Source: Nemertoderma westbladi
Lineage: Eukaryota > Animalia > Xenacoelomorpha
Length of the DNA: 64,000 bases
Assembly: GCA_032718475.1 (NCBI GenBank)
Contig: JAUCBJ010007486.1
Location: 1-64,000 of the forward strand
Direction: 5' to 3'
Below the pieces are notes generated by a model. That model was not told the origin of the DNA. It worked only from the letters and a program-made list of their open reading frames with translations, and searched no databases. A program made the translations under genes and the position numbers. Positions 15,978-62,113 of the stretch are shown piece by piece. The stretch's first letter is position 1, and every line of letters begins with the position of its first letter.

Positions 15978-15980
15978 AAA

Positions 15981-31019: not shown

Positions 31020-31600
31020 TAAACTTGGGGACATGAATGTTGCGAATAATCGCATAAACTCTGAATAATAAATATTACGCTACCCGTACAGAATACCCAA
31101 ACAAATACAAACCAAAATGCTGGCAGACTACCACCAAGCCTAAATAAACTACTGTATGTGCAGATTCCAAAACGGTTAGTTAGTATGCGTTCTAACACGG
31201 TAGTACGACTTATTCTTTAAGAGGGGATTGACCTTACAGTTATGACTGCCCCAACTTACTAACTGGCACTTTATCAGACAAACTCTACACAAGCAGCAAT
31301 CTCTTCAGACCTAGTAATAGCTAGACAACAATCCAGCCTACAAAATATCTGAGTAATAACTATTACGGTACCTGGACAGACTACACAAACAAACACAGGC
31401 CTAAACGCTGGCAGAATACTGTCAAGCCTAAATAAACTACAGTATGTGCAGATTCCAAAATCGTTAGTTAGTATGCGTTCTAACACGGTAGTACGACTTA
31501 TTCTTTAAGAGGGGGTTGACCTTACACTCAAGTTGCCCCAACTTACTAACTGGCACTCTATCGGACAAACTCCACACACGCCGTAATCTCTCCAAACCCA
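31020..31600. repeat. ~290-bp tandem duplication in the element B leader (with shorter repeats at ~29840-30130 and ~31810-31935)
   Basis: GCCTAAATAAACTAC...GTAGTACGACTTATTCTTTAAGAGGGG...AACTGGCACT occurs at ~31138 and ~31426. Confidence 0.8.
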
Positions 31601-31990
31601 ACAACAATCCGACAACAGTCTGGCCTACAGTTATCTGAACAATCTGAGCAGACTTACACGTCTTCAGCTCAATATTAACTTACTAGGAAATAAAACCGAC
31701 AGAAATAGGTAAAATCTCAATAAAAACCAGGGCTGCAGTCCCTGATTAAATACTAAGACCTACCGGTATACAATAATCAAAATCGAATAATACTAATGTA
31801 CTTATACTGGAAGTACCGGTTAGGACAGTTGGGCCTACAGGCCTACAGAAGTACCGGTTCTGGCAGTTGGACCTACGGACCTACAGCAGTACCGGTTCTG
31901 GCAGTTGGGCCTACTGACCTACAGAAGTACCGGTTCAGGTTTACCGGTCGATCGGTACTTTCAACTTTATTGCTTACTGCAATAAAGTCA

Positions 31991-32001
31991 ATGACTGTTA
32001 T
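31991..32001 (-). promoter_or_regulatory. PBS-position sequence of element B, complementary to its own LTR
   Basis: Minus-strand ATAACAGTCAT abuts the 5' LTR; its reverse complement lies in the LTR at 32735-32745 and 21901-21911. Confidence 0.7.
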
Positions 32002-33242
32002 TGTACGCGCTTTTGAAGACCTTTAGCAGTTTAACCTGCCAAAATTTATATGTCTTTTGGTTTATAAATCGACTCTTGAAGATGACAATATTTAATACCA
32101 ATAAACACAACATTAGCAGAAGCCAGCCTAGTGCGCGTCCATTCACCCGCTGGATAATCCCGGGAGACTGGATTCTGTCGGCTTAGATTATTATTGCAGT
32201 GAAGCTTACGGTATTGTATTATTCGATTGATCGTTAATAATTAATTTCTGACTAATATTATTCACTTTCGGGAAATATTAACAGTTCCTTTAGGACGTGG
32301 CGCTCTATCTAAGTAAACAGAGATATGACTTATACTAATCACAACGGTAAGTCGGTAAGGCTTATGATTCACGTATGAGGCGCATTCTTTAGGAAATGCT
32401 TAGTTATCAGCCACAATACTGCTCACTAATTTGCCGACCGTCAATGAATTTTATCATATATAAAGAGAATAGCAACGGACTCATGTAGGGCTTATCAAAT
32501 AGCATTAAATTCAATACACACCACAATAATATAAGTCGCAATCGCTATATATATAACCCGCCTCTCTAACCTGTAGTGTATCAAGAAAATTGGGAAATTT
32601 GGGTTCTTTATAAATGTTCTCCAAATAATATTCAATCCACTGATATAAGATATGACAACAGTAAAAACATTAAGACGGTAGGTTAAGATATGATATGAAC
32701 AGATATGTACAGCGATATGCACTGATATGGACCGATAACAGTCATACGCTCTATAATTTAAGCCTACTAATGTTTCTTCTAAAGTATGAAAAGAATTAAC
32801 TCTAGAGCCGGTGTTTCTGGCTTAGACAGCAATAACAACAAAGTATCAGTAAAAACAGTAAGACTGAACACTCTCCTTATAATCGACCGAAAAGCTACAC
32901 GTCGACAGGAAAAATCGCTCTGATTGGCTCAAGCCAAACAAAGAACCATGCGTCCAATGGCTGTTTCCATGTCAGCAACCAGCTGTTAGATGTCGTAATA
33001 TGAATCATCACGGCTAAGCTGTGAAAGGTATTTGGTACATTATAGGTTTTTTGCCTTACCATGTCCGCCAAAACACGTATATAGTAGAATGACTTTTATG
33101 TCCGTTAAAACACCTATAACGGTACCTTGCGGGCGAGGGGAATATTTATACAGTTAGAGAACCTTTTAGAGTATTCCAGCGCCTGGGGGGAAACTGGATT
33201 GCGAAGCAAAGGGGCCAGTTATATCCCACAGAAGCTTTTACA
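32002..33242 (-). repeat. 5' LTR of element B
   Basis: Direct repeat of 21142-22409. Confidence 0.95.
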
Positions 33243-36200: not shown

Positions 36201-37180
36201 CTGTCCCTGTCCCGCTCCAAAGCCTTAACCTGGTGAAACATGGCCTCTACGTCACAGGTGAAAGCCACTTTGCGTTGTCTAAAACGCATTAGGACTCCCA
36301 TGAGGTAATTGTTCATATTCGGCCCGTCCATCAGTTCGCTGTTCATAGACATCCCTTGGTAAAGCGCAGCGCAGTCGTTGACTACACGCACCTTGCCAGG
36401 TTTGTCCGGGTGTCGAACAAAATGATGTGGCAGGTAATATGTCTGGTCTGTGGTTACCTCGGGATTTAACATCCTAATGGCGTATCCCTTTTGGAGATAC
36501 GTCTGAAGTTGTGCATTGTATTGCATATGGGCCGTCTCGTCTCGCAACAATCACTGCCTTATTGATTTGAGTCGCCTCAAAGCAAGCGGGTAATTGTTAA
36601 CGAGTTTAGGTTGTCCATTGCGCCACAACATACCAACCTCATAGTGGCCATTCGCGGTCTGGCGAATGGTATCTCTCATAATATTTAATGACCGTTTTTC
36701 CTGTTCTGACATAGCGGTCTCGTAACTACCGGGTTCTGCTGAGTCCTGTTCCAACCATTGAATGGTCCGTTCAGTCAGCAGTCGGTCTAGCGCTGCTTGC
36801 ACTGCGCCCTGGTCCTCGTCCACGTCTTCGTCCGCTGCGGTGGCTAGTGTCAATGCGTCTGGTAGGCTCGCAAGCCTTCCGGTGTCACTAGTCGGCGTCG
36901 AATCGTCGTGCGGCGGTTTGACAACTTCTTGATCTATCGGTAGGCTCGCAAGCCTTCCAAGATCAACGACCGGTGTCGAAGCCTGGTGGGTGGGGTCAAT
37001 GACCTTTGGATTTTTCGGTAGGCTCGCAAGCCTTCCAAAATCCTCGTTCATCGAGTCATCCACAGCAACAACCCTTTGGTCTTCGGTAGTCAATACAACC
37101 TGGTTTACTGCAAGTAGTTGTAAGTCAGAGGTCCGTGTGGTCGTGTCCAGATCAGTTACGTCAGTATCGGTGGCGTCTGC
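33243..37180 (-). pseudogene. Element A pol: RT, RNase H and integrase N-terminus/core, with stops
   Basis: YYLPHH...KVRVVNDCAA...CDVEAMFHQV...FGARDSP...FYVDD; HSFSDAS...VPRGELQA...WTDA...NPADIASRG; H-H-C-C (DAHVQLKH...CMICK), TGIDCFGP, IYCDQGTNFVGA. Confidence 0.95.
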
Positions 37181-37181
37181 G

Positions 37182-40100
37182 TTAGCGACGCAAGTCTGTC
37201 GTAGTGCCGTCCGTACAATTGGACCACAGGGAGTGTGAAGGAGAGTTATCTATCGTAGTAGTCAATAAACTACATGTACTCAAAACATCGTCCTCCTGGT
37301 CACTTACCTCTAGTGAACGTATTGGTGCTCTAGTATACCAACCTATGGGAGTTCTACATGCGTAGGGGTTGCCCGCTGTAATAACAGATGGGCGTGTCTC
37401 CCATACCTGATGTAAGTTAAACTGGTCTGTCCCAATTAACATCGCAATGGAACGATAATTAACAGGACATTCCGGTATTCCAAGGTGTCGGAAATACTTA
37501 CGATCTTCCGGTGATTGCTCTGGCACAGGGCCGAGCAAGTTACTAAAGTCCTTCGTAGCTGCAAAGGTCAAATTTCTTACCGGAAGTAATGAGCGCTCCT
37601 CCTTGCTGTGTTCCGCTTTGGAAAGAAGAGTGTCTAAGGTTAGTTTTACTCTTGTCACAGGGATCGCTCTCTTACCATGCATGCTGCTTACAGTATACTG
37701 AGCAGTCTTACCTTGACTCATGTCCGTAACCACGTCGGCTACTTGTTCGTCGACATAACTATGCGATGACGCAGAGTCTAGGATAGCGTATATACGCTTG
37801 CTCCCTCGGGTTCCGGTAATCTTTATAGGAACCACGCTAAACCCTTTCAATTGGTTCTGTGTGAGGAGCGTTACCGATGGTTGTTCCTCACCCGCATGCA
37901 CGTAGAAAGTATCGTCTTCCTCCTCGTCCTCGTCCGATGATCCTGACTGATCCATACAGTCCGCGTAAAACGTACGGATCTCGCGCGGCGCACGCTCCTT
38001 ATATAATGCGTCGCATCTAGCCGCTTTATCTGGATGCTCTCGTCGAAAGCGTCTGGTCGGAGTATGACTAGTAGTGTGAAGTAACGCGTCATGGTTACGT
38101 CCACACAGAGGACATGTATCGTCGCTCGGGCAATCCTTCCGGACGTGTCCTGGCTTCGTACATCTCCAGCAAGAATCTAAAGATCGGATTTGGAGTCTCC
38201 TCTCCTCGATTCCCAACTCTTTAAAGGCGCGACATCCACGAAGTTTATGTCCGCTATGGTTTCTGCCGTTCCGCTCGCAGTATGAGCATCCCACAAAGTC
38301 CGCCGGCAACTGTTGTCGTGGCTGCGTGGTGCCGATAGGCGTCAGAACTTTAGAAGTCTCAGTAGGGGTGGCGTAGGTAACGGCTTTCGCGTTCGTCGGA
38401 AACGGTTTAGTCCGATTCGGCGCAGAAATAGCTATCCCTTCTGCCGCGATATGATGATCAGTATAGTTCGATCGGGTCTCGATCACGGCCTCCCGCGAAA
38501 TCAGTTGATAGACGTCAGTGAGTTTTAATAGCCCGCCGGCCTCTTCACGCTGGTACTCGATGCGACGCCATTCTCGTCGGAGTCGATGATGAAGTCGACC
38601 GATTATCCTGATGAGAACTGTCGGTGCGTTAGCGTACTCGAGTTGTCCAATGGACCGTAAAGTCCCTATAGCGTTTTTATTTCGTCCGCGAGTCGTAGAA
38701 GATCGATCGGTTTCGAAATGCTGCCTCCTCTACAGAGGTCTTCGATAATGGATTTAGCCATGGCGACGTTACCTCCGTAAATCGAATATAAACGGTCGTA
38801 CGCCAACTCAAAGGCATCGGGAACACCAATGAAGGTTTCCGCTAATCGTTTCGGCTCACCAGACAGGACTAGGAGCAAGTAATTAAACTTCTCCGTCGAG
38901 GTGAAAGCACACTTAGCGATCTGGGACTCTACGTAGTCTACCAGTGTGCGCCAGTGTTTCGCGTTGCCAGAGAACTTCGGCGGTTGCTGTGCCGGTAATC
39001 CGTGTCTAGCCGCGAATTTCGCAATCTCGCTAACCAAATCCAACTGTCCACGTCCCTGTTCGGTGGCGTCGTCCAGTCGCTCCCTTCCGCGCGTTGTTCG
39101 TCGGTAGGAATTATTAACGGGATCTTCTTCTCGATGGTTCGGAGTCTGTCTAGTCTCCTGTTCTCTCCTTGGTGATCGATGTTGTCTAGGTTGTTCTAAC
39201 TCCACGCTGGTTCGTGATCGATCCGACGGTTGTGTTTCGAGTCGTTCTTCGATTTGAGCTAGTCGGTCCGCCATCTCGGTGAACTGTTTGGCGTTAATCG
39301 CTTCCGCTGGTTGCAACGTGGGTTTCTGCAAAGGTGTTTCTCGTGGTGGATTGTCGATGTATGGGTTCGTTGATCATTCCTCCCGTTTGTAATCAGCCGC
39401 CGCTCCAGTACGGAATATTTCCCATTCCGTCGACTCCGAATCGCTGGATGAATCGCTGTCATCCGGATAAGGTGGTTGGCGGGTTCGCGTACGGCGTATT
39501 ACTCTTGGTCGAGTTCGTTGTGGTCTGGGATCTACGGCTCTCCGTTGTTCGGTAGGATCGCAAGCCTTCCACGAAGTCGTAGGTCTCGTTGAACTCGGTT
39601 CGATCCTGTGGGTATTACCCACATCCGTCGTCCTTCGTTGTTCGGTAGGCACGCAAGCCTTCCACGAAGTCGTAGGTCTCGATAAACACTGTGTGAGGGG
39701 TCTAGTAAAAACATCGGAGTTAAGTGCTACTGTAGGTTTATAAATGACTGGGTTCGCGCCGCACGTTACAGGTTTAACTTGTAATGGTTTACTCACCTGT
39801 TTTACTGTCATAAACGCAGGTTCGTCTCTCTCTACTAGTAAACTACGGCTTACAGTAGGTGGACTACTTATCTTACCTGCGAGAATCGGCGATGAAGTCG
39901 CTCGTGGCTGCGGAATTGATTCCGACATAACAAACCTATTCGCTTGCACGGGTGATATTTCCTTCGGTTTTGCAACCATAACCGGTGTTACTGGAGTCAT
40001 GGGTTTGAGCATAGGAATAACTTGGGGAAAACGTTTACAGTAATCCTCGACGAACGCCTCTCCTCGATCTATCGCTCCCACACTTCCTTCCTCGATTCGC

Positions 40101-41279
40101 TTCTGAATTCCGCGATATCGAGTCTCCATGCGATCCAGGGCAGACAAGTCGTGTCCAGCTCGAGACCTTATAGATCTATCTCTCGCGTCGAGTTCGAGGT
40201 CCTCTTGCGCGTTCGCCGCCTCGCGCGATCTATGATTTAGTTTGAACTGGAGCTGCATCTCCCTTTCGCGTCGATCTGCTATCTGTTGTTGCGCTGCTCA
40301 TTCCGCTTCCTGTATAGCTAAACGAGCGTTTATTTGTCGCGCCTCCAACTTGGCACGAGCGTCGGATGCTGCTTTCTTCCATGCAAACTCAGCTGCGTTT
40401 ACTGCCGCAACTCGTGCTAACTCATCGGCTGCCGCCGCCCGTCGTGCTAACTCGTCGGCTGCTGCCGCTGCGGCCGCTTCTCGCGCTAAGTCCTCTTCCA
40501 GTCTCCGCATTTCTGAAGCTTCAAATTCGGCTTGAGCCTGGAGTTTCGTAAAGTTTGCTACATCGTCTCTACGCTGTCTTTCTCCTTCAGCCGCAATCTG
40601 TGCCAACTGCCGTTGCGTTTCTTCCTCAGTGACTTGTTGTCGGCGTGCGACCTCCTGTTGTTGTCGAGTAATTACAGACGCTGTCCTACTAACGTCGCCA
40701 ACGTCGCTCCGTACACTAACGAACGATCTATCCAGTGGTGGAATTTGGTAGGCTCGCGAGCCTTCCGTAGTAAGAACTTCCGTCGTCCCTCGCGGTTCGA
40801 CTTCCGGTTCTTCGATCGGTACGCCGCATCTACGAAGAAAATTGGTGAGCGTCTCTAACCTCCCGTCCAGGCAGTAGAGTTCTTCTTCCTCTTCGGGTTG
40901 TAACAACGCGTCCGAAACTGACTCACCTAGCAGTTAGTCGAACTGCTCCTGTTGAGCCAATCTTATCACCGACTTAAACTGGATAAGGCTTTCTCTCGCA
41001 CTTACCAACTTGTCTATTATCTTTACCTGAGTAAAGTTATCGCCACGCAACTCTGCAAGTTCGTATAAACCTTTAAGTTTATCTACGGAGGCATGTACCC
41101 TCTACCTTCTATCCTTACCTGTAAGGTGTAGAACTCGTATCTCGACATCGGGGTGGTTAACTCGCGTAAAACGCGAAAACCTTCTCCGAGGTTCCGAGTA
41201 ATCTGGGCCATGTGTCCTCCTATACTCCTAATAACGTTCTCCTGGCTTCCAGTCGAACTTACCATGTCCGGTTCCCGCG
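37182..41279 (-). pseudogene. Element A gag-protease, several stops; N-terminus lies at 47310-47511 beyond the LINE
   Basis: KFSGNAKHW...EKFNYL; CSYC..H...C / CWRCTKPGHVRKDC / CPLCGRNHDALLH; protease AILDSAS; frame restored across the LINE (...FLTVP-REPDMVSS...). Confidence 0.9.
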
Positions 41280-41617
41280 ATCTGGTCAGCAGTATGTGTG
41301 TGCTCTGATTGTCTGCTGTTGTGTTGCAAATACCGGTATTGAATTAGGCCTAATGGCCCCATTTTGAACTCTTTAATTATTGAGATGCGCATCCATATTG
41401 CCATGATCCTGCCCACTGCCTGAGCCATAAACCACTCTACGCTGACTTTAATCAAGTACTCTGTCAGTCTGTACTCGCCTGATACCAGTAATTCGTGGGA
41501 CCTCCGGAACTGGGAATTTTCAAATTGTAGTCTGCCAATCAACCTACAATCAGTGACTGACCTACTCTTCTCGACTTCTGTAGGCTGAATCTGTGGAAAA
41601 GGCAGAAAGGCCTAGTT

Positions 41618-42367
41618 ATGCCTACGTGGAAAGATGTGGGCGAGGAAATCCTCGCCCGTCTTGACGATCTACAACAGGGCCAGTCTGACATAATAAAAGA
41701 CGTTCGCGAATCACGATCTGAAATCGTTGCAGTTTGTTCGAGATTGGATAATCTCGAAACCAACAATCGAGTAATTACCGAGACCAATACAACAATACAG
41801 AGACAACAGGCGGAACTCCATCACGATAACGAAGAGCTTACCTCTTATCAACGACGCCACAACATACTTGTTCATCACCTTCCAGAGGTGGTCAGCCCCG
41901 ACGAAGAGCGTCATCAGCTTATCTCAGAAGTGCTATCCCCTCTAAACCTCTCGATTAGTGACGTTGATTTGTACCACAGGTTAGGTAAAACATCGAAGCC
42001 GACTGGTCCCTCGGCCACACATTCGTCTTCTTTAACAAGCGAGCCACCAAAACCTCGTCTATTAATTATTCGGTTCTACGGCCACAGCGCTCGTATAACT
42101 GCCTTGGTTAATAAGAAAAAGTTGAAGCGTCCTTTATCGATTACGGAACATCTTACCCCCACGGGCTCGAAATTAATTACCCGCGTGCGCGAATTACATC
42201 GGGCTAAGTTAATATTCTCTTACTTCACACGCAATGGATCTGTATTTGTTTGCACCGCGGAGAAATCGATACCAAAGAAGATATGTTCGGATTCTGATGT
42301 TGTGGCTATTCGTGCCCTCCAAGTCAGTCCATCCCATATGGTCAATGAAGGGAACAGGATCAGGTAA
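41618..42367 (+). CDS. LINE ORF1 (coiled coil plus RRM-like domain)
   Basis: Heptad-rich N-terminus, RRHNILVHHLPE, HRLGK, PRLLIIRF, ITEHLT motifs. Confidence 0.85.
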   Translation: MPTWKDVGEEILARLDDLQQGQSDIIKDVRESRSEIVAVCSRLDNLETNNRVITETNTTIQRQQAELHHDNEELTSYQRRHNILVHHLPEVVSPDEERHQLISEVLSPLNLSISDVDLYHRLGKTSKPTGPSATHSSSLTSEPPKPRLLIIRFYGHSARITALVNKKKLKRPLSITEHLTPTGSKLITRVRELHRAKLIFSYFTRNGSVFVCTAEKSIPKKICSDSDVVAIRALQVSPSHMVNEGNRIR

Positions 42368-42807
42368 TTTATCTTACTGGTTTTTTTGTTAAATTGGTAT
42401 GACCCACCAATTTCTTGGGTTTAGCTAACATACTGCTATAATGAATGTTCCGAGCTGTATTTCGACGTTGATGCTTTCCCCAAACATTAAAATCTCTACA
42501 TACTGGTATAAATCTGCATGTCTGTCAGTCCATTTATTTTTCTATTGTAGTCTTACTCATTACTATTAGAGCCTATATAACAGTAACAAGTGAATATGCT
42601 GTTAGTCCGGAAAATTTGAAGTTGCATTTTGGTTTATTTTTCTATTATTGGCTAAGTCTTGATTTATTATTATTTCTTTTTTTGATTTATTTTTATTTCT
42701 TTACCTTCTGGTAATATAGGCTAGAAGGGCTGCGATATATAATGCCAATACTGTACCATTATGTACTAGGGCCTATATCAGTATATCGGTGATATATTAA
42801 ACTAATA

Positions 42808-43263
42808 GGTGTTATACCGTTAGTATGGGCAATAATAGAAGTTTAACCTATGTATTTCTATTTTATATATATATATTCAGGGTACGATATATTATACTAT
42901 CACGGTACAATATGTTGTACTATTACGTGTTATACCGTTAGTATGGGCTTTATATAATAGAAGTTTAAACTATGTATTTCTATTTTATATATATATATTC
43001 AGGGTACGATATATTATACTATCATGGTACAATATGTTGTACTATTACGTGTTATACCGTTAGTATGGGCTTTATATAATAGAAGTTTAAACTATGTATT
43101 TCTATTTTATATATATATATTCAGGGTACGATATATTATACTATCACGGTACAATATGTTGTACTATTACGTGTTATACCGTTAGTATGGGCTTTATATA
43201 ATAGAAGTTTAAACTATGTATTTCTATTTTTTATATATATTCAGGGCACGATATATTATACTA
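42808..43263. repeat. ~120-bp AT-rich tandem repeat, about 4 copies, in the LINE inter-ORF spacer
   Basis: GTGTTATACCGTTAGTATGGGC...TTCAGGGTACGATATATTATACTATC repeated. Confidence 0.9.
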
Positions 43264-43535
43264 AATACTTTTTATACCGGTGGTTTGGGCTATATATATA
43301 TATTAGAACCTTATTTAGGACATCAATATGTAATTTGTGTATATAATGCGTATTACGTGTAAAACATTTAATTCTGGTCCACGTTTAGTGTATCATATAT
43401 GACATGTGTTATACCGGATATATACTATAATAGATTATAGGTAGATACCGGTATATACCACATTGGTTGCTGGGGAATGTAATTTGAATTTTAGCGGCCA
43501 CTTAAGATAAATATTGCAACATAACACATTGTATA

Positions 43536-46500
43536 ATGCAACAAATTGCGTCAGACACTAATTCTAGTGGTAGTGCGACGACGGCTGTTGGCATTGGGTG
43601 CGGTCTTTGTTTTTCAACTTTTCAAAATTCAGATTTAATTATCAACTGCAATCTTTGTAAACAGAAATATCACCGACAATGTGGTTCATTCTTTGAGACT
43701 ATCGATTTTTCAGACACTACCATTTTATCACACTGGTGCAATTTTTGTTATCATTATCTATTTCCTTTTGGTAGTGTTGAAAATGACGATCTCGATATAT
43801 TTTCTAATGAAACGGGTGAAGTTAATTGTGAAGACATACAGGCTGCTGGCAACATCTTTAGTGATATTAATCCTGACGATAACTTGAATTGCAATTTGAT
43901 TCTAGGGGATTACTTTAATGAAACAATATTTGATAACCAATTTTACGGAAATGACAGCAGATCGAATTTTTCATTAATGCATTTAAATTGCAGGAGCTTA
44001 AACGCAAATATATGTGCAATAACAAATTTTTTGGAATCTATGAATGCCAATTTCGACATTCTGACTTTTTCTGAAACGTTTTTAACTAAAGATAGTGTAT
44101 TAAATGAAGTTGCCGTTCGTGGTTTTAAGGAACCTTACTGTGATTTTCGAAAATGGGGTAAGAGACTAGCCAGAGGAGGCACGGCTATTTATGCGCGCTC
44201 CGATTTAGAAACATCAATACGACCCGACCTTCATTTCAACGGCCCTGAAAATTGCTGGATAGAAGTGGCGAGGCCTCACCCTAATAAGCCCTTAATAATT
44301 GGATGTATTTATCGCTCAGACGAAATAGAATTTGATAGTTTTAATAAAGGTTTTAATGATACACTTTCCAAATTGGCCTCAACAAATTACGACGTTGTTA
44401 TAACCGGTGATTATAATATTGATGTTTCTAAACCAAATAAGCCTCGTACTAGTGAATATATTAATACAATATCTTCTAACGGCTTCACTCAAACTATAAA
44501 CCAACATACTCGTATCACTCCCTATTCTAGATCTACTATAGACCACATCCTTTGTAACATACACTCATCTATTTGCTCACCTGGTGTATTTTTAACAGAA
44601 ACTGGTACTACCGACCACCTTCCTACTTTCATGGTTTTAACTGATTATTCTATGTTTTTTCTTCCTCCTGATACAAAGCGCACTTACGATTACTCGCAAT
44701 TTAATAAAGATAGGTTTACTAATGATGTACGAAACTTTTCCTTTAGATATTCAGCTAATAACACCCCTGACAAACTTAAACTAGAAAGTTTTTATGATGA
44801 CTTCACAAATATTTGCAAGGATAACCTTCCCTCCGTGGTTGTACAAAAACGAGATGTTCCAAAGAAATCTTGGCTCACAAAATCGCTAATTTTAGGAATA
44901 AAAAAGAAAAACTTATTATACGCAATATATTCTAAATCACCCACAACTGAAAATCATAATCGTTATAAATTATACAGAAATAAATTAACCACACTACTTA
45001 GAGCAGCTGAAAAACAATACTACAACTCCGAATTCAATAAAAATTCTAATAATATGCGTAAGACTTGGAAAACATTAAACTCTTTATTACACCGTTCTGC
45101 AAAAACATCAACACCAAAGAGATTAAACGTGGACAAAGACGGGGAAATTATTTCTCTCTCCAATCCAGCTGATATAGCCAACGCCTTTAACAATTTCTTT
45201 TCCAACATTGGTCCTCAACTTGCTTCACAATTTGCTTCAAGTTCTCGTTGTCCTACTCGCCATGTAAGACATTCCAAATCCAATTCCTTCGGACTTTCAG
45301 AAACATCTCCCGCTGAAATTCATTACATCATTTTACAATTAGATGAGAAGTGCGCCTCCAATGACGATTTTCCGATTTCTTTAGTAAAGCTTGCGGCCCC
45401 ATTTATATCTACTCATTTATGTAGCTTGATTAATCTCAGTTTACGACTAGGGCATTTTCCTGATTGTCTTAAGTTAGCAAAGGTCATTCCAGCTTATAAG
45501 GGTGGTAACCCATTTCTTCCTACAAACTACCGTCCAATCTCCCTCCTCCCTGTTTTCCATAAAATTTTCGAAACAGTTTTATACAACCAGCTTATAGCAT
45601 ACCTTAATAAATTCAATGTAATTTCGCGTAATCAATTCGGCTTCCGGAAAAAATTCACCACATCATATGCAGTAATAAATATAGTGGAGTCAATTCGAAA
45701 TGCTCTCGATAATCATCAATCCTCTTGTTTAGTATATATAGACCTCCGTAAGGCATTTGATACTCTTGACCACTCCATCCTTATAAAGAAACTTCAGTCA
45801 TATGGTATACGCGGTACCCCTCTGTCGATTTTCTCAGATTACTTATCCAATCGTAAACAGTTTGTTTCATTAGGTGTTACGTCATCTTTAGTTAATTCAA
45901 TCACCTGTGGTATCCCGCAAGGTTCGGTACTAGGCCCAATTCTTTTTTTACTTTATATAAATGATCTCCCAAATGCAACCTCTCTCATTGCCACTCTGTT
46001 TGCAGACGATACATCTCTCATGTTCCACGATAGTAACATAACCAGATTAACTAATACTATAAGTACCGAAAGTAATTTAATTAATGATTGGCTGATAGAT
46101 AATAAATTAACCTTAAACACCGATAAAACAGAATACTCCATATTTACATTCTCGCAAAATTTCAACTTACCAAGCACAACAATTAATATCAACAACAAAC
46201 CCATCAGATACACGTCCGCTGCAAAATACTTAGGCATAATTATAGATGATAAACTCACATTTAAGGCGCACATTAAATACATACTTAAAAAAATTTCTAA
46301 AACAGGTGGACTGTTCTATAAACTTCGACATATACTTTCTAGAGAGTTACTCCGCATGCTTTTTAATACATTAATTTATCCTTACATTTTCTATGGCTTG
46401 ATTGTTTGGGGCGGCACTTACAAGTCAAACACAGATCCTTTGAAAATAAAAATCAATAAGATATTGCGTTGTATCACATTTAATCATTCTCAATCCTCAT

Positions 46501-46826
46501 CCTATCCCATCTACCAACAATTACGTATCCTACCTCTAGATCTCCTCTATAAATACCAGGTGCTAATACTCATGTTTGAAGTCCATAATAATCCATCTCA
46601 CCCTCTAGCTTACCTCTTTACTAAAGCCTCTTCGGTTCACTCATATAATACTCGCTCTGCTTCCTCTGGCCTGTATCATTTACCTCCGGCTCGTTTGGAT
46701 GTTCGCCATCTTTCATTATCTATGCAAGGGCCACTTTTGTGGAACTCATTATCACAACTTATTAGGGACAGTCGAAACCTGGCGATATTTAAGAAAAAAT
46801 TAAAATACCACTTACTGCAGATATGA
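43536..46826 (+). CDS. LINE ORF2: PHD-like finger, APE endonuclease and reverse transcriptase (1096 aa, intact)
   Basis: CGLC...CNLCKQKYHRQC...CNFC; HLNCRSL, SET, GDYN, IDH, TDH; YRPISLL, QFGFR, DLRKAFD, GIPQGSVLGP, FADDT, KYLG. Confidence 0.95.
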   Translation: MQQIASDTNSSGSATTAVGIGCGLCFSTFQNSDLIINCNLCKQKYHRQCGSFFETIDFSDTTILSHWCNFCYHYLFPFGSVENDDLDIFSNETGEVNCEDIQAAGNIFSDINPDDNLNCNLILGDYFNETIFDNQFYGNDSRSNFSLMHLNCRSLNANICAITNFLESMNANFDILTFSETFLTKDSVLNEVAVRGFKEPYCDFRKWGKRLARGGTAIYARSDLETSIRPDLHFNGPENCWIEVARPHPNKPLIIGCIYRSDEIEFDSFNKGFNDTLSKLASTNYDVVITGDYNIDVSKPNKPRTSEYINTISSNGFTQTINQHTRITPYSRSTIDHILCNIHSSICSPGVFLTETGTTDHLPTFMVLTDYSMFFLPPDTKRTYDYSQFNKDRFTNDVRNFSFRYSANNTPDKLKLESFYDDFTNICKDNLPSVVVQKRDVPKKSWLTKSLILGIKKKNLLYAIYSKSPTTENHNRYKLYRNKLTTLLRAAEKQYYNSEFNKNSNNMRKTWKTLNSLLHRSAKTSTPKRLNVDKDGEIISLSNPADIANAFNNFFSNIGPQLASQFASSSRCPTRHVRHSKSNSFGLSETSPAEIHYIILQLDEKCASNDDFPISLVKLAAPFISTHLCSLINLSLRLGHFPDCLKLAKVIPAYKGGNPFLPTNYRPISLLPVFHKIFETVLYNQLIAYLNKFNVISRNQFGFRKKFTTSYAVINIVESIRNALDNHQSSCLVYIDLRKAFDTLDHSILIKKLQSYGIRGTPLSIFSDYLSNRKQFVSLGVTSSLVNSITCGIPQGSVLGPILFLLYINDLPNATSLIATLFADDTSLMFHDSNITRLTNTISTESNLINDWLIDNKLTLNTDKTEYSIFTFSQNFNLPSTTININNKPIRYTSAAKYLGIIIDDKLTFKAHIKYILKKISKTGGLFYKLRHILSRELLRMLFNTLIYPYIFYGLIVWGGTYKSNTDPLKIKINKILRCITFNHSQSSSYPIYQQLRILPLDLLYKYQVLILMFEVHNNPSHPLAYLFTKASSVHSYNTRSASSGLYHLPPARLDVRHLSLSMQGPLLWNSLSQLIRDSRNLAIFKKKLKYHLLQI

Positions 46827-48453
46827 TTAAACCATTTCAATTTCAATAGCATACATATATTTTTTCATTATCCTTTTTTCATATACATTCTCCCCAATTG
46901 GTTATCAACAACTTGCGTTATATAAATATATTTTCCTTTACATATTTTGCGTCATATATATAGTTTCATACTTTTTTTCTTTACATATACATTCTCCCCT
47001 ATTGGTTATCATCAGTTTGCTATGCAGTCTTGTACATACCACAAATTTATTTTTTTACATGCAGGAAAAAACAAATATTTATAAAATTCCGACAGCAGTC
47101 AACCGCACCGCACCCACCTATCTGTATAATTAAATTTACTTTAAACATTCTAGAACTCTCCAGATGCAGGGGTGAGCTAAAACTACACTAGCTATGCTAT
47201 AGCGGAAGCTCACACCAATCAACCCAGCAATCAATTTTGTAGGGTATTGTGCGTTATTTTTATTTTATAATTTTGGAGGAAATAAATAAATAAGAATAAA
47301 AAATAAGCGGGACGGTAAGGAAATCTTCGATTCTGCCGTCGCCATGCGTTGCGGCTTCCGGTATTTCCGTTCGGGGTACCGGCGATGCACGCGGTGTGAC
47401 ATCGGTGGAATCTCGGGTTCTCCTTCTCGGTTCGTCTACTGTCGATCTGTCCGGGTCGCACGAGTCATAGTCGGTAGGTGGGTATCGAGTCGAATGGGGT
47501 GTGTCACTCATGTCTTATTATATACGTCAAGTACGGGTAATAAAATGTCAAAGTATCTGAGTGTTGAAATGTCAAACTTACCTTGATATATATAGTATAT
47601 ATATACCCTAACTGGTACAAATAAATCAACAAGTCAGAAATGTCGAAATGTCAAAATGTCAAAATGTCAAACTTACCTTGATATATATATATATCATATA
47701 TATACCCTAACCGGTACAAATAAAACTAACAAAGTATATAATAAAATAAGTAATAATCTAGCCTACCGGCTAAATTTGTACGAATAAATGAGATAACGGT
47801 ATACGTTACCAAAATGTAGATCAACAAGTACAAATAATAGGCAAAACAGCAACGTCTAATGGGAAAATAAGTACCAACAACACTACTATTAGACAGTGAA
47901 ACCCACAAATTGTGAGTACTACTGTGCTTTCTTAAGTTTGAACGACACGAGTCGTAAAACTTACGTTCCTTTGATCTTCCAGTCGTGCAAATTCCCAAAT
48001 ACAAACCGGACGTGGGTCGTTCCGTTTTTCGGCGGCGTGGACGAATTTATTGTCTCCCAAACTTTGCGAAAAGCGGTCTAATCCTCGAAGCGGTCCAGAA
48101 ATGAGTCCTTGAGTCCTGAAAGGTCGAAGGTGAGAGTTTTACTTCTACACTACAAAAAATCTTCCTAAGTACCGATACAACTTGGTCTTTAAACCCTATG
48201 TACCTTTTCAAGTACCGAAAAGTAACACCGCATACACACGGCGTAAAACAAGATGCTACAAACTAACTATTAGCTAGTCAAATATTAAATACGAAACTAC
48301 TAGCTACCCTAAAGGCCTACTGAAGCAGGGGACGTTTTACAAATTACTAAATTTACTAACCTTAAATTTTAAATATCTCCTACTTACAATAGCTAACAGT
48401 ATGTGAGAGACCTCACGGTTGGGATATATATTTCCTACTTTCGTAAGAATAAA

Positions 48454-48463
48454 TATACCTCAC
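48454..48463 (-). promoter_or_regulatory. PBS-position sequence of element A, complementary to its own LTR
   Basis: Minus-strand GTGAGGTATA abuts the 5' LTR; its reverse complement lies in the LTR at 49803-49812 and 17870-17879. Confidence 0.7.
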
Positions 48464-50708
48464 TGTTGTGTCCTCTACGGTAGGGACTACCCTACAGCCT
48501 ACAAATCTACTAATACGAAGCTATAGAATATCTCTATCCGTAAAGTCCAGTAGTATACCGCTTACCAGATCCTAGTAACAATGTATCTTACTGTAAGACT
48601 CTAGTAATGAAACGGGCTCGTACAGTATCTGACAACAAATCCCAGTCCAGGATATCTAAACAAACAGATACAATACACAAACTACTACTGGCGAGGAGCA
48701 GAGCCTGGTGTCTATTCTAGGTACGTGGGCGGGTCTATTGCCTACGTACTAGACAAAAGGATACCTGTCCTCTAACCGGTATGGCAGATGTACAGTTACA
48801 GTAACAAACCAAACTCACGGGAAAACAATCCCCGCGCAGCGAATCCTAACTATCGCTGACAGTCCTAAATACAGTAACTTGCCGCGGTGTGATTTATATG
48901 GTTTATATACGAACTAGGTGGGTTACAGCCCTAGCGTAACAATACTGATCCCCCTGTCTGAATCAGCCTAAAAGAGGTCGTGCCTAAATGTAACGATAAC
49001 TGATCTCCCTGCACGAAATCAGTCTAAAAGGTCAGGCCTAAATGTAACAATACTGCTGCGCAGAAAACAACAGTTTAATAACGAAAATGAAATGCTCCCT
49101 CTTGCCGTAACTAAATATCTGATCCTAATTTACAAATACAGATAATTTCTGCCTAAAAGTAATCTAAAGTGCGCTATAACTAGTAGAAACTCTAAGGGTA
49201 AACGTGTTAGAAAAGTGTTACAAATAAAACAATTTTGGTGTTATCTTTTCACTAGGTTTTAGTAATTCTCTGACCGAAATAACACCGTGTGCTAGCTACT
49301 AAAATAAGCTAGTCGCGTTTTGTAGAACTTTATACTCACAAATGAAGTGAAAGCTCTCTCCTTCCTATCCACAACTCAACTGGGCAACCACGGTGTTAGT
49401 AACTACACCCGTGATCGGCACAAATACCAGATTCTGGTTGTAAGATAAGAAATAGGGATTAATTGCTACTGTACGTTAGCTGATCTGGTATACAAATTTG
49501 ATTCTAGAACTTTGTTGCCGCGGTAGTTAGCAGCAATACCTATCAGTACGTGGCAAGGCGCGGTAGGATATTAATAAAACCTCCCTAGGCCAAGCGGTGT
49601 GCCGGTAGCAGAAATGTTCCTTGCCACATCAAATAACCAACTTCAGGCAGGGGGGGGGGGGGGGGGGGGTACTAATGTATGCTCTACAAAGCGAACCGGT
49701 ACCAAACGGTCAGTACTGCGAATTACTAAATTATGGAACATATGCTGTCTGTACCTAATATGTACTCGCGTACGGACGGACGGCAATAATTCGCTTCTAC
49801 CTGTGAGGTATACAGGTAACCCAGGGGTTCGCAGGACTGACAAAGGGGGTTCTGCCTAAAATATAGTTATTTGATCCTAAATTTGTGGCGTCCCAGGACG
49901 ACGTCACGCTTACCCTGATCTATAGGTCTTACGGCGGGCAAGGGCGTCAAACAAAGTCTTACCTTCCTCATAAAGCGGGTGCTGCATGGCATGTGGAACA
50001 TTTTGAAGGGCGAAGGGGGTGTGCGGTCCAAGTTAATGTGGGCGCTAGCGTGTTGTGGACATCCTTTCCCTGCATTGCTGACGGCCTAACGGTCTAGGCG
50101 GTCAACTTCCCGATGTTTGGCTGTCCCAAAGTTGGACCAAAGAAAAACATGTTCAGGAGTTTGCAGTGTATTTACAGTTTAGCAAAGATTTATCAAACAG
50201 ATTTACAAATAGTTTCAACAAGAAACAAATAACTAAGCAAGAAGCAAAGTGAAGTGATAAGTCAAGTGGATACTAATAGTGAAGAGTGATAACCGATGGC
50301 AAACCAGCCCTTTATATACTAAATCTGGGACATAGAATTTACTAGAACCTCCTAGAGTATTCCATGGCCTCACATTGGAGCAATAAGATATTCCATGCCT
50401 TATGATTGGCCTAACTCATCGTTCGATACGTTGTACGCACCTCATTGGCTTACTTACCAATTTGTACCAAATGAAAATAAATTGCCCCAAAATACAAATT
50501 TCCCGACTAAGATTCGAACTCGTAACCTATGTAATGCAACCAACGCCTTAACCATCTGACCACTATGCCACGAGAGTAACTAGGGGTTTTATGTATACAA
50601 ATATGAATAGGCATATTACATTACTGTAACTTAATCAAAGTGCGTCGGATTTTCGAAAGTTTTTTACGTTATACTACAAATGCTATTCTATAGTGAAATA
50701 ATTCATCA
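48464..50708 (-). repeat. 5' LTR of element A
   Basis: Direct repeat of 16515-18770, followed by TSD CCAGG. Confidence 0.95.
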
Positions 50709-56206: not shown

Positions 56207-57383
56207 TGTTCGCGCTTTTAGACCTTTAGCAGTTTAACCCGCTAATTTTAGGTGTCTTCTAGTTAATAAATCGACTTTAGCCTATAACAAGTATTTGTTG
56301 CATATAAGATATAAAGTTACATTAGCCGAAGCCAGCCTATGCGCGACCATTCACCCACAGTTAAGGGAGACTGGATTCGGAGGCTCTGACCTTATTGCGG
56401 TGTAGACTTACTGTATTATTCGATTGCTCGTTAATATAATATCTCTGACAAATATTATTTACTTTCGGGAAATATTAACAGTTCCTTTAGGACGTGGCGC
56501 TCTAAGTATGTAAACAGAGTTATGACTTACACTAAACACAACGGGATGGCTAATGATTTTCGTATAAAGCGCATTCTTTAGGAAATGCTTTATCTGTCAC
56601 ACTCATGCACACTACCGCACACTGCTGCACACTGATCTGCCGACCTTCACCAAATTTGATCATATATAAGGAGAATAGCAACTGACACATGTAGGGATTA
56701 TGAAATAGCATTCAATTCACTCCAAAACCACTATAATGTAAGTCGCAGTTGCTACAGGTAACCGGTCTCTCTAACCTTCAGTATATCAAGAAGATTGGGG
56801 TTTTATGATTATTTATCGATATTCTCCAAATATAACAACATATCCATCAACTTATAACAATTAATAACCGACAGTAAATAGCAGTAAAATAATGCGGTGA
56901 AAGGTATGTATAGTATGCTATGAGCTGCGATAACAGTTATACGTTCCTATAATCAAAGCCTTCGAATGTTTGGCTTAAGTCTGAAACTCAGAATAATTCC
57001 AAAGCCGATGTTCTGGGGCTCAGGAAAAGGTAAACAAAGACCGTCATGCATTGCGCAATTTCCCATAGGCTTCTGTGCAAATAAAATGAAAATCGCTCTG
57101 ATTGGTCGAGTGAGCCGAACAAAGAGAGTTAAGAAAGCTCCACATCGACATCAAAATCAGCTGATAGATTTCGTAATCTAAACCACACTGTATTAAGAGT
57201 ATTTTGGCGTATTGCGGCATAAAATAGCTTGTTATGTCCGCTAAAGTACACATACAGAAAAATGGCTTTTTATGTCCGCTAAAACACCTACACAGTAAGA
57301 AAAACGGCTTTTTATGTCCGCTAAAACACCTACAGAGTACTTTGCGGGGGAAATGACTAGTTATATCCGCAAAAGCCTTTACA
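56207..57383 (-). repeat. 3' LTR of BEL element C, a diverged relative of LTR B
   Basis: TGTTCGCGCTTTT...GCCTTTACA with many blocks shared with LTR B; same PPT context (plus CCGCTCCCAGAAAATGGG). Confidence 0.85.
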
Positions 57384-57435
57384 CCGCTCCCAGAAAATGG
57401 GAATTAATTCTATAAAATATAAAAAATCACAGTTT

Positions 57436-60182
57436 CTAAAATAGGTATAAAAATGCTCTAAACAGTTCTTTCTTGCGCGGACGGCATTTACGCAGTTTTT
57501 TGAGGCTAGCAAGAGTCCTTTTCTCTTTGGGGCGAGCCACTTTACTAGGAGGGCTATAACTCCTGGGTGAAGGGTGCAATACAATTGCATCGGAAGGTTT
57601 AGGATTACGGTCGGTGTATCCGCCGGTCGAGGTACCTGGTTGATCGATATCAACCTCAGTGGAGCGAGGTCGAACGGCCTTTAGAGCGCGTTTCAGGACA
57701 GCAGCTCTTACTGGTCCCTGACGAGTCGTCTGAACAAGAGCGGTGGGTGGACCATGGGTAGTGAGAAACTTCCTCGGTTTAATGGTTCTTTCCAACTCGC
57801 GTTCTCGGGCTCGATATTCGTAGGGCCGTCGATGCACTTCCTGTAACTCTGGATGCGAGTTGATGAACAAATCGCCATATTCCGGATCTTGACGGATGAA
57901 GTTGATCAAGTTATAGGAATTAAGATCGTTAGGATTAATGTCCCTGAGATATTTACGAACAAATTTGGTTGAAATGCACTCGCCAACACGCTTCATTAGT
58001 TCGTAACTCGGTGTGCTTGATTTTTGTTCAACAGACGCGAATAGATAAGGATGGAACGCATAAACTCCTTCGTAGGCACGTCCAGGGTAATAGCAATGGC
58101 GTGACTCACAATGTAAATCCGCGTTCGCTTCCCAAGCTCGGATGTAGCGTAGGGTAATCATTTCATCTACGCTTTCCAGATCGCGGTTAAAAGGGCAATC
58201 AAAACTGGCATTTCCTTTAAGTTGACAATGATGGCATTGAGTCATAAATTGGGGGCAGACTGCGAAAATGTGCAAGTTATTGAGTCTGCAATATGCACAA
58301 TAGATCTCCATCGCCGGTTGTTCATGGAAATAGGAGCAGGGTACGTCTGAGTCCATGGGGGTGAGATGGTCTCTCGATGCGCATAAGCGGCAACGTTTTC
58401 GAGAAACATAGTTGGCATGCCGATAATCGTATGCGGGAGACACTGTGGACCTTGATACCATTCCAAGACGTAGTTGTTGTCGCTGCTCCGGGGCGCTGTA
58501 GGCTGAATCTCCTCGGATTCTAAGCATATTGGTTCATCTTCCAATTGCATAGCTGAGGTAGGTGTGGCGATCTCCTCAAGCGAACCCACTGTCTGAACTT
58601 CCACGATAGAATAACCCGTGGGGATTCCAGGTCTTTGTATAACAGAGGAATGTAAGTTCTGTATACAAACATCCTGGAAAATGGCGAATCCAGCGCTGTC
58701 TAACTTCTCAGCAGCTGAGTCTCTCAGACTGAGCTTGGTCAGAGCGCGGTCCTTGAACTGACTATCAACGTTACGGAACGGAGTCAGAAAGCGCCTAAAG
58801 CATTCGAAGCGGATGAATTTATTGTGATCATCTAGCTTGGCGAGTTTGGTTCCAAGTATTAAGGGATGGGCGCGTATAGTATGACTGCACACATCGGCTA
58901 GCCAACCGGCAAGTGCGGCGTTTTCAAAGATCGTGTATATAGCTAAGGAGGGACGAAGTGGAACACTCATGAAGCTATACACGACGCCAGGTGCGGTCAA
59001 TGGTCCATCGAAGTATAATCGAGAATAATGATCTCCATATACTTGTTGATAGTTGATAGGATTTCCGACCTTGAAATTCCATCCGTATTCTTGAAAGGCA
59101 AGATGTCCGATGGAGGTTCGTTGTACTTTAGTAATGCCGCTGGGTGTATTGGCATACATAGTTCGGAAGAAACCTCGGCCTTCTGCCCAGGGAGCAATCA
59201 GCTGAGTATCTACGAAAGGATATGGGATATTCTCCATGTTCCGAAAGTCGTTTTGAAGATCTCCATAAACAGCTGAGCCGATTTTAAGGATTCTTTCGTT
59301 AAACAACATCTCTAGCACGGGCTGGGGTAACATCGATCCATCGATACCCATGGCCGGTTTGCGCTCGGTGTCAGTGACGTAACGCTGCGCGAGTTCGAAT
59401 TGTCCATGTCGGAGTTTCTTTTGTATCTCGGTGAGGGTCTCAAAAGAATAATCAATCACGTCGGAACACGCTCGAGTAAACACGTGGTTAGAACCAGCTA
59501 GTCCTCGTATATGTATCATGCGCGTAGTTCCCAGTTCTCCAACCGGAACGCTACCTTCGTTATCGTAAGTGACAACTCCATACATCTCGATAACGTTAAG
59601 AGTTTCGTTCCACTCTTTAGTGGCGTTTTCTAGGGTCATTCCCACTGGATGCCACAAGGTGGCGCATTCGCTAGCGTTAGGTAGATCTCTATAGTTCAAA
59701 TACTGTGTAGTGTCTCCATATCGTTGTATTCTCTCCTCCTCGAATAACACGTCGAGATTCCAGTGGACTAATCGAGTTTTGATAAATCCATCGAGATTAT
59801 ACGGAGGTATTATATCCTTCTCTATTCTGGAAACATTATAGGGTTTTCGGAATGAGTTTACTTTCACTAACTGATCCAGATGTTTCTGCAGTTGTTCGAG
59901 TTCGACAAGATCGAGAGGATTTATTAGTGGTAGAAACCTTAGACTATGTGTAGGATCTTCCGGTTTTACCATGTAATATTGAGTTAGATTGACATAATAA
60001 GGGTGATCTTTGATCCCATAAAACGAGTTCGGTTAAGGTCTAGCTCGTATGTTGACCTCGTGTACCATACGACGGACAAGATCCGCTCTATTGTCCGGAG
60101 GTTCAACGAGTATACCGTCGACACGAGCGGCCTCGATTGGCGGACGTTGCAACATTTCAATGTTTGCAATGTTTCCCTCCAA
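57436..60182 (-). pseudogene. Element C accessory 3' gene: RNase D/WRN-like 3'-5' exonuclease fold plus three CCHC-type knuckles (one stop, one frameshift)
   Basis: VVTYDNE (ExoI-like), LPQPVLEMLFNERILKIGSAVYGDL (ExoII-like), FVDTQ, SIGHLA; 1-nt frameshift near 58436 joins 58242-59972 to 57436-58527; frame extends upstream to ~60182 through one TAA at 60033-60035. Confidence 0.75.
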
Positions 60183-60392
60183 TTGTAGAAGAATATAGGG
60201 CGATGTGAATAAACAAAATAAAATTTACTTTCAAACAATTTAATGACTTGGTTCTATAATAATTCTAATATGTACAAATATTGCCACTGATATTGCATAA
60301 TGATTTTTACATACAAATTAAATTACAAAAATATTGCTTTCTTTACTGCATAATGATTACTACATACAAATTAAATTACAAAATATTGCTTT

Positions 60393-60515
60393 CTTTATTT
60401 ATTTATTTAAAAATTGACGGTCTACCTAAATAATATAAAAAACACTCTGGCTAGGGCAGGTGAAAGGGGTAAGCCAAACCCGCGGGTTTGTCTCCCCAGT
60501 CACCTCCTTCCCCTC
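60393..60515 (-). mobile_element. 3' terminus of a LINE (stem-loop plus (AATA)n tail)
   Basis: Hairpin GGTGA..GGGG..CAAACCCGCGGGTTTG..CCCC..TCACC followed on the minus strand by AAATAAATAAATAAAG. Confidence 0.5.
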
Positions 60516-62113
60516 TCGCTATTAATATTATATCATAATATAATATACATTACTTATGAAATTCTAAAATATGGATACGACTAGTGTATATGAGTCCAGT
60601 CGAATGTTTTATCAAAACCTACGATATACATCAGAGCGACGATGATGTATATGCTGTTGACGGTGTCCGTGAGGCGTCGCTTCCCGGAACCTGCGACGAC
60701 GTTCCCTGGGCCCCATCTGTGGCCCGATGCTTCCCGGGTTCAATTTTCAATTCCCCGATCACACCGGCACAGCTCGTCGAATGTGTAGCCAGATGGACGG
60801 CTACTGTCAATTTACTGTGGCCTGACTGTACATTGAGCCAACTCAGAGAGTCAACCGGCAGGTGGGCCAGTCGATAGTGATCGAGCACCAAGGTTGCCCT
60901 TGGGCCTAACCGACGGTCTTGTCCCATGTGGGCTTGCGCTACCCAACATGGAATTTTGACTCGTTTTCACCTGCCTCACCAGCAGTATTGAAAAAACAAT
61001 ACTGTCTAGCTCAAAAGCTAAGAACAAGTAACCACTTACCAGTCACTGTACATGTGTACTCAACAGATGTTCACAATATCAAGTACACAAATTGGACACA
61101 TACCATGCACACACAGAGGACATAATCGGGAAAGAACAAATCGGGGTCAAAATCGAGAAAGACAAAATCGAGAGGGAATAGTTGTATCGACTAGAGAAAA
61201 CATGAGAGTCGAGAGTACCTTATTTTGCCGTCAGGGCAAAATAACTTTATGTGCACAAACATTAAACACACGTAATACGTACTAACTAGGTTTTAGCCTC
61301 CAGTCATAATTAAAGGCGTGGTATAAAAGCACACCAAACTGCTTAATTTTGCAATCCGATGTCAGACTGAGGAGTTTAAGAAATTTGACTGATAGAGCGG
61401 ACATTTAAGTGCGAAGTGGTATTCATCCTCCACTTCTTAGAGATTACAGAGCTGGCATAATCTATCGTTACGCGGTACATTATGCCAACGTCCGTATTCG
61501 ATTTGTAGATCGTGTGAGGAACACCTTAGGCGGCGATGTATAATGTTCACGAACTTCATTCTCATTCTATTCATGATATTGCAATTTACCACTGCCGATG
61601 GGGATAACATTTCCGTATGCCCGTATTACGGATACAAACCAAACCGGTACAGGACTGTACTGGTGTGACAGGAGGAAGACAATTCTCCATGGTTACAGGA
61701 TAACACAAAGTAATTTATTTTAGATGTTGTGGAATGCAGTGATTTAATTATAAATAGTTTATGTACAGGTTATAAGACAGAAATAAGCGCTATAAAGCAC
61801 TTAATAAAGATAAATTAAAAAAATAAAAATCTTCATATATAGAATTCCAATAAAAAGTCGACCGAAAAGTGAAATCCTTAGAACTTAGAAATGTATTCCA
61901 GTAGAATCAGCGCCCCAGAAAACCTGAAAATGTCAATTTATAGCTGATATGTACTGATATGTACAATATACATGGCTCGCCCCTTATAGGACTAGGTACC
62001 ACTAGATAGGTGGAGGGTTTTCCCTATTGCTATGCTGTACTGAAATTACACTGTACAACACAAAAAGTTTCAGTTCGCCAAACAACGCATCCAATTCGCT
62101 GGTTTTATACTTT

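Follow-up and report, generated by a model that had tools for sequence, protein, structure and literature searches.

A probable RNase D-like accessory gene with zinc knuckles in the env position of a BEL/Pao-related retrotransposon family of Nemertoderma westbladi

Long terminal repeat (LTR) retrotransposons are thought to need gag and pol alone, plus env for infection. A 64,000-nucleotide stretch of the genome of the xenacoelomorph Nemertoderma westbladi (contig JAUCBJ010007486.1 of assembly GCA_032718475.1, positions 1 to 64,000, hereafter the window) contains a nest of mobile elements, one of which, element C, carries a third gene whose predicted product joins an exonuclease-like domain to three zinc knuckles. 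An RNase D-like domain is said to occur in the nematode elements Cer7/Cer13, a claim that was neither found nor excluded here.

The closest described systems are found in bdelloid rotifers. Third open reading frames (ORF3s) coding for DEDDy RNase D-like proteins were described in the elements Juno and Vesta, and also in Athena/Terminon (Rodriguez, Kenefick, Arkhipova 2017, PMC5408684), and are covered again in the available part of a review (PMC6431247). These proteins harbor a DEED motif and their activity was not demonstrated (PMC5408684). As in Juno and Vesta, the gene reported here is a family-specific, RNase D-like third ORF without a transmembrane segment, located between pol and the 3' LTR, and the same guesses of a role in 3' processing or silencing were made there as here (PMC5408684). 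The position of the C gene before the polypurine tract (PPT) and LTR is that of the Juno and Vesta ORF3s; adjacency of the C gene to pol was not seen. On the contrary, Juno and Vesta belong to other LTR lineages with a dUTPase in pol, whereas the linked elements here are BEL/Pao; their motif is DEED, whereas the candidate set here is D-E-D-E; and, comparing by description, triple Cys-Cys-His-Cys (CCHC) knuckles are not reported for them (PMC5408684). The C gene further differs from them by its ~900 codons and its clear purifying selection.

The association of an exonuclease with CCHC fingers is known from the RNase D of T. brucei (TbRND), whose fingers bind single-stranded RNA and raise cleavage, a pairing termed very unusual in the available part of that paper (PMC7797062). 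There, as in C, in a divergent copy of the window (D) and in a database homologue described below (P0001), a 3'-5' exonuclease is followed by tandem CCHC fingers. However, according to the same partial source, TbRND is a cellular mitochondrial enzyme for guide-RNA U tails, with four fingers and a linker of <30 residues (PMC7797062), whereas in the present case the gene belongs to a mobile element, the knuckles number three and the linker measures ~150-270 residues. Both layouts are probably convergent. The TbRND structures 7C42/7C45 were unmatched in PDB sequence searches with C, A2, alignment A4 and P0001.

Egalitarian, Exd1 and Exuperantia similarly contain a DEDDy-derived RNA-binding domain, and Exd1-like clusters are the top ESM Atlas neighbours of the domain studied here; as far as the available text of that preprint goes, they are host proteins with other partner domains, not borne by LTR elements, and no knuckles are described (bioRxiv 2025.08.03.668247). 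Among Belpaoviridae, Tas, Cer7, Cer13 and Atlas have, as here, a third coding region placed after pol and ahead of the 3' LTR, but there it encodes a membrane glycoprotein, whereas the C product is devoid of a transmembrane segment (PMC8742986; PMC9094657). The profile of this family by the virus taxonomy committee ICTV lists gag, pol, env and tRNA priming only (PMC8742986). Finally, Tf1 shares with elements A and B of the window an 11-nt complementarity of the primer binding site (PBS) to its own LTR; it is a Ty3/gypsy element, RNase H releases its primer and the available part of the source names no accessory exonuclease (PMC7175516).

The novelty of the gene, for which the first-pass annotation of the window had called for a literature check, is lower than estimated there, because DEDDy ORF3s of LTR retrotransposons had been published (PMC5408684). 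In the literature searched, which covered few subscription papers and no supplementary tables, there was no report of an exonuclease gene in BEL/Pao elements, nor of a knuckle-fused exonuclease in any retrotransposon. A BEL/Pao exonuclease is not mentioned in the parts available of PMC2774666, PMC554778, PMC3118150, PMC11662393, PMC9094657 and PMC535339.

The gene of element C and its exonuclease-like domain

The gene occupies the env position of element C, directly before the PPT and 3' LTR as the first-pass annotation had proposed, and each of the motifs named at that stage is present on the minus strand. The features of C are as follows.

57436..60155, minus: accessory gene (ORF3), ~906 codons; first ATG 60155, stop 57436
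58872..59600, minus: DEDDy/RNase D-type exonuclease-like domain
59576-59556, minus: motif VVTYDNE (ExoI)
59564-59562 and 59558-59556, minus: putative ExoI residues, Asp and Glu
59330-59256, minus: motif LPQPVLEMLFNERILKIGSAVYGDL
59261-59259, minus: putative ExoII Asp
59216-59202, minus: motif FVDTQ
59114-59097, minus: motif SIGHLA
58979-58965, minus: motif YSFMS
58937-58935 and 58925-58923, minus: putative ExoIII residues, Tyr and Glu
58195..58392, minus: three Cys/His zinc knuckles, starting at 58392, 58299 and 58236
58000..58194, minus: small conserved block after the knuckles, assigned to no family; W, A, G and Y invariant in C, B, D and P0001
57439..57760, minus: Pro/Ser-rich, basic C-terminal tail
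57384..57390, minus: PPT GGAGCGG, found with the same letters ahead of the 3' LTR in each of A, B and C
56207..57383, minus: 3' LTR (TG...CA), sharing 78.5% identity with that of B
60156..61390, minus: non-coding region upstream of the gene, still multi-copy

The gene ends 46 bases from the PPT, and the TG...CA 3' LTR then adjoins. The frame has the length announced for it, ~900 codons, but is not open in the window copy, as an in-frame stop (60035-60033) and, near 58437, a frameshift break it. The window's letter in the stop codon was shared by no contigs covering it in the four public DNA runs of the same organism, and length differences were found at the frameshift site in contigs of 4/4 runs. 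The three knuckles and the basic tail that had been described both exist (24 K/R versus 7 D/E in the last 107 residues), but the knuckles of C are irregular, with CX2CX4HX9C, CX2CX5HX4C and a third in which Asn replaces His (B has His). Unlike an env-like ORF3 product with signal peptide and membrane anchor, and as expected from the initial description, the C product has no transmembrane segment, its highest 19-residue Kyte-Doolittle mean being 1.19.

The domain very probably adopts the DEDDy/RNase D-type (RNase H-like/DnaQ) fold, and several weak but concordant signals favour this assignment in C, in line with the resemblance to RNase D, WRN and EXD proteins first proposed. The NCBIfam RNase D model TIGR01388 matches the ExoII stretch (E=0.0028). 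In hhalign comparisons with E. coli RNase D, the probability rose from 30 to 68 with one homologue added (E 5e-5, 47 columns). In the ESM Atlas, the PF01612/Exd1 set made up 24/30 matches, the best at 0.92 and the second an Exd1-like cluster. A HMMER search among 1.84 billion representatives returned two proteins, of which P0001 (E 5e-5) is a 648-residue singleton from an ENA contig, 29-30% identical to C in the domain. Its layout is that of C, namely exonuclease motifs followed by a long linker, then three CCHC knuckles and the W/G block, and its knuckles match HIV nucleocapsid (E 1e-4) and Air2 (0.064). Identities among the domains of C, D and P0001 are 24-37%. When a model of the P0001 domain was submitted to Foldseek, ranks 1-13 went without exception to DEDD exonucleases or to polymerases that bear one, among them EXD2, the apicoplast polymerase, WRN, RICE1 and NrnC. 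The second HMMER protein, P0002 (E 6e-4), was dropped as a repetitive protein matching outside the domain.

A number of results weigh against this assignment. Pfam gave C no exonuclease match at E up to 10, PDB sequence searches gave no match, and the ESM Atlas match has 157/256 features in common, below the family-typical 170. Structure models were poor, with a mean predicted local distance difference test score (pLDDT) of 29 for single-sequence AlphaFold and of 42 for a four-row model of the P0001 domain, not of C; the Foldseek E values of 0.76-2.5 are not significant; and VIA reached a best Z of 2.9, with an unrelated chain first and DEDD exonucleases in 9/27 rows. Word-indexed homologue searches returned nothing at E 0.01, PHROGs and phage tblastn no exonuclease match for C, NCBIfam no match for D or P0001, and locus scans of metagenome and viral contigs no relative. 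The check by HMMER and structure prediction suggested at first thus yielded RNase D-family and CCHC signals, but no significant fold match.

A candidate active site

An acidic pair, DxE, follows a hydrophobic strand at ExoI (VVTYDNEG in C, ILSIDVER in P0001), and the ungapped score of the P0001 segment on C is best at GVVTYDNEG. At ExoII, an Asp and a DT motif are found in C, D and P0001 (GDL/SDL/ADL and VDTQ/VDTK/LDTQ), in a region aligned to RNase D by both TIGR01388 and hhalign. At ExoIII, a gap-free alignment of WTKPLCHDQLYYIYCENT in P0001, MSVPLRPSLAIYTIFENA in C and ICAPPRASLQYYLVLESN in D shows a Tyr followed by an acidic residue in all three sequences (YTIFE / YLVLE / YIYCE in C, D and P0001), with eight residues from Pro to Tyr and four from Tyr to acid, the spacing of RNase D PLTERQCEYAAAD. 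The P0001 segment scores best on C at MSVPLRPSLAIYTIFENA, tied. As Tyr and acids are thus present at three motifs, the acidic set reads D-E-D-E plus Tyr.

This YxxxE register lies 14 residues past YSFMS, which the first-pass annotation had taken for ExoIII together with YWNIC of copy D. That placement was abandoned, as P0001 and D align to the YxxxE register and neither C, D nor P0001 has an acid at YSFMS/YWNIC, where D also lacks Pro-Leu. In C the YSFMS register likewise has a Pro-to-Tyr spacing of eight; at the position of the acid, YSFMS/YWNIC shows Ser or Cys. On these alignments, it is most likely that the third exonuclease motif does not lie there. The main reason given to doubt catalysis, a missing ExoIII acid, loses its support with this move to YxxxE, and the residues suggest, by a slight preference, an enzyme that is catalytically competent with Glu replacing the last Asp.

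Four points tell against this site. ExoI is present in two sequences only (C and P0001), and these two were not aligned together there by MAFFT, a misplacement due to an insert; by eye against P0001, ~33 additional residues lie from the third strand to LPQP in C. The residue four positions after the Tyr is Glu, not the Asp expected of ExoIII, in 3/3 sequences. Lastly, the ExoIII segment of RNase D taken alone scores equally on the YSFMS register (13, tied).

Carrier elements, related copies and selection

Three further relevant units are located in the window.

21142..33242, minus: element B, a complete derivative of BEL/Pao type, bounded by LTRs at 33242-32002 and 22409-21142
16515..50708, minus: element A, BEL/Pao; LTRs 50708-48464 and 18770-16515, 98.5% identical
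12006..12830, plus: copy D, exonuclease half; ExoII Asp 12051, ExoIII Tyr 12369, Glu 12381
15943..16514, plus: copy D, knuckle half, three regular CX2CX4HX4C knuckles; resumes at 50709

The view that a BEL/Pao-related LTR family carries the C gene as a conserved accessory gene, where env would be, is supported. The 3' LTR of C sits within the integrase end of another BEL element, and the gag-pol and 5' LTR of C were not seen within the window, so that the BEL identity of C rests on B, to which it is tied by LTR, PPT and gene identity. B is flanked by the target site duplication (TSD) CAGAT, has LTRs 99.6% identical and is seated in the integrase of A. It encodes a gag with DUF1759 (E 8e-12), a protease and what is left of the Pao RNase H region (44% to A). 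Of the accessory gene it retains the knuckle half alone (23567-22488, 85% identical to C at the DNA level), without the exonuclease half; no similarity to the N-terminal half of C was found upstream of its knuckles. TG...CA ends, PPT and TSD were all found in A and B, and PPT and 3' LTR in C within the window. Against this attribution stands the fact that gag-pol and the complete gene were never seen together in one intact element: BEL gag and Pao pol accompany the knuckle half in B and are unseen for C and D in the window.

In B, a 137-codon open stretch (23951-23541, minus) precedes the knuckles. Since it is unlike the N-terminal half of C, the knuckle module may be joined to a different partner there.

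Upstream of C, a decayed Ty3/gypsy-type pol with an RNase H match (62000-64000, plus) and a short 3' fragment (61390-61560, minus), which from its motif we take to be LINE-like (long interspersed nuclear element), mask the 5' part of C.

Copy D is a second, divergent copy on the plus strand that matches both halves of the C gene (tblastn 1e-15 and 2e-12). A 5' truncation removes its ExoI, a stop is located at 12261, and it is interrupted by element A and, between its two halves, by a 3.1-kb DNA element (12834-15942) that has inverted ends of ~138 bp and a decayed ORF. For D, no confirmed LTR and no gag-pol were seen in the window.

Element A encodes a gag-pol with Peptidase_A17 (E 4e-40) and DUF5641 and is flanked by a 5-bp TSD. 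No homologue of the accessory gene was found in it by self-comparison of the window, and a 126-codon open stretch between its integrase and 3' LTR (19801-19424, minus) is unrelated to the exonuclease gene. Its LTRs of 2.2 kb exceed the 0.2-1.2 kb of the ICTV profile (PMC8742986). In A, a 12-nt repeat array (34428-34853) adds a low-complexity stretch, in frame, between RNase H and integrase. A LINE (41561-46826, plus), which has an ORF1 and whose ORF2 (RING-like, endonuclease, reverse transcriptase) is open over 1106 codons, lies within the gag region of A. The whole nest is flanked by 11881-12008 and 52059-52180, 94% alike, and host exons at 10640-11293 and 52413-53723 (plus) encode a fibrinogen C-terminal domain and a Thr/Pro-rich mucin-like repeat.

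The accessory gene is kept functional in the family by purifying selection. The comparison of nonsynonymous and synonymous divergence (dN/dS) proposed at the outset gave, between B and C over 321 codons of the knuckle half, a dS of 0.64, a dN of 0.069 and a ratio of 0.108. Within the exonuclease half, 30/33 variant rows among copies at 58920-59130 are synonymous and 30/33 are third-position, compared to an expected synonymous share of 0.29 (p ~2e-13, a value too strong because the rows share ancestry and are not independent). Over the whole gene, 14/22 classified substitutions are synonymous among the rows listed (40 of ~650), a weaker signal, as expected if many variants are private to the decayed window copy. 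The Tyr and Glu codons of YxxxE are located at the edge of the 58920-59130 stretch, where variant rows can be suppressed, and the Ser codon of YSFMS shows zero variant rows among copies. The family is abundant, with 22,566, 15,140, 8,478 and 446 contigs matching it along the whole gene in the four DNA runs (three samples). In contigs of two runs, 57870 is joined to 59917, which represents a deletion derivative of the C family minus most of the gene.

Possible roles of the gene product

The selected third gene likely encodes a DEDDy 3'-5' exoribonuclease, tethered by its knuckles, which would serve the element as an optional aid by trimming unpaired 3' tails of RNA; to this reading as a whole we give about an even chance. 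The DEDDy-type domain would act as the exoribonuclease and the three zinc knuckles would hold it on single-stranded RNA, where unpaired 3' tails would be trimmed. Its likeliest targets would be the 3' tails of element RNA, or of small RNAs aimed at the element, and it would serve in RNA upkeep or counter-silencing rather than as an indispensable part of reverse transcription. Judging by gene position only, it may be expressed from a spliced or subgenomic message. As A lacks the gene, the latter is dispensable in cis. RNA as substrate is predicted by analogy with TbRND, whose CCHC fingers bind RNA and boost cleavage (PMC7797062). On the other side, Egalitarian retains all five residues yet does not need them, as stated in the available part of the source (bioRxiv 2025.08.03.668247). 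The product could also be imagined as a pseudo-nuclease adaptor, which would bind element RNA (export, localisation, packaging) or mimic a piRNA (PIWI-interacting RNA) factor such as Exd1, with no cutting. The replacement of the last Asp by Glu in 3/3 sequences, the Exd1-like cluster at rank 2 of the ESM Atlas and the retention of the knuckle half only in B are consistent with such an adaptor. In the portions available of these sources, Egl, Exu and Exd1 bind RNA by this fold and Egl carries I-factor RNA (bioRxiv 2025.08.03.668247), and CERV of Cer1 provides an example of an accessory protein exporting LTR-element RNA (PMC10309623). However, Tyr and acids are kept at all testable positions despite 24-37% identity, where dead sites would usually keep less, and we regard an adaptor as a real possibility but rather unlikely.

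The first-pass annotation had also suggested a primer-maturation role, in which a 3' tail would be trimmed back to the 11-bp PBS duplex, creating the self-primer, in trans where the gene is missing. The self-complementarity is present: the PBS begins with TGG in neither A nor B, where the ICTV profile gives a PBS complementary to the 3' end of a host tRNA (PMC8742986), and the 11 nt after the 5' LTR pair with the own LTR, in A (48463-48453) near 49820 with one G-U and in B (32001-31991) near 32752, a pairing reached in 2/300 LTR shuffles for A and 0/300 for B. The 3' LTR of C contains an 11-mer homologous to the self-primer site of B (10/11 letters), and the correction to YxxxE makes activity plausible. 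The trimming itself fares less well, as A lacks the gene, B lacks the exonuclease half and the PBS of C is outside the window; in the available part of the source, the Tf1 primer is cut by RNase H between bases 11 and 12 (PMC7175516), and no self-priming is reported in the main text for the rotifer elements with DEDDy ORF3s (PMC5408684). A priming role for the gene is therefore unlikely, given the self-complementary A without it and the RNase H-made primer of Tf1, and primer maturation in the form proposed appears improbable, although the enzyme might be supplied in trans. An enzyme acting on DNA, trimming or proofreading complementary DNA ends in reverse transcription or before integration, would agree with EXD2, WRN exonuclease and the apicoplast polymerase exonuclease among the top, though not significant, Foldseek structures, and with the existence of DNases among DEDDy enzymes (PMC5408684). 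Since the triple CCHC knuckles resemble those of nucleocapsid, Air2 and CNBP-type binders of single-stranded RNA, and since the gene stands apart from pol and is missing in A, we consider this decidedly improbable. It could lastly be argued that the carrier is non-BEL or non-autonomous, or the fold wrongly assigned, as C and D show no gag-pol in the window, D has no confirmed LTR and no structural match is significant. C nevertheless has the same PPT as B and resembles it in the LTR (78.5%) and over the 3' part of the gene (85%); B, flanked by a TSD, combines a BEL gag (DUF1759, E 8e-12) with remains of a Pao RNase H; and several methods agree on the same exonuclease clan. We hold such an error to be very improbable.

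Coming back to the favoured reading of a knuckle-tethered exoribonuclease, selection was not shown for the rotifer DEDDy ORF3s, whereas the C gene is under strong purifying selection in a high-copy family. The gene type has at least three members, 24-37% identical, with a defined candidate active site and an RNA-binding module. Given this selection, these divergent members and the candidate site, its function is directly testable. On a broader scale, these elements might represent an old, widespread self-priming BEL/Pao clade with an active D-E-D-E-Tyr exoribonuclease and triple CCHC, trimming 3' tails in trans to finish the self-primer or strip decay/silencing tails. We hold this to be quite unlikely, but if true, it would provide a retrotransposon-encoded RNA-end-processing or counter-silencing enzyme. 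More generally, if active, the product would amount to an RNA 3'-end enzyme encoded by a BEL/Pao element itself, similar in build to trypanosome RNase D and of possible bearing on the evasion of small-RNA defence by transposons or on tRNA-free priming.

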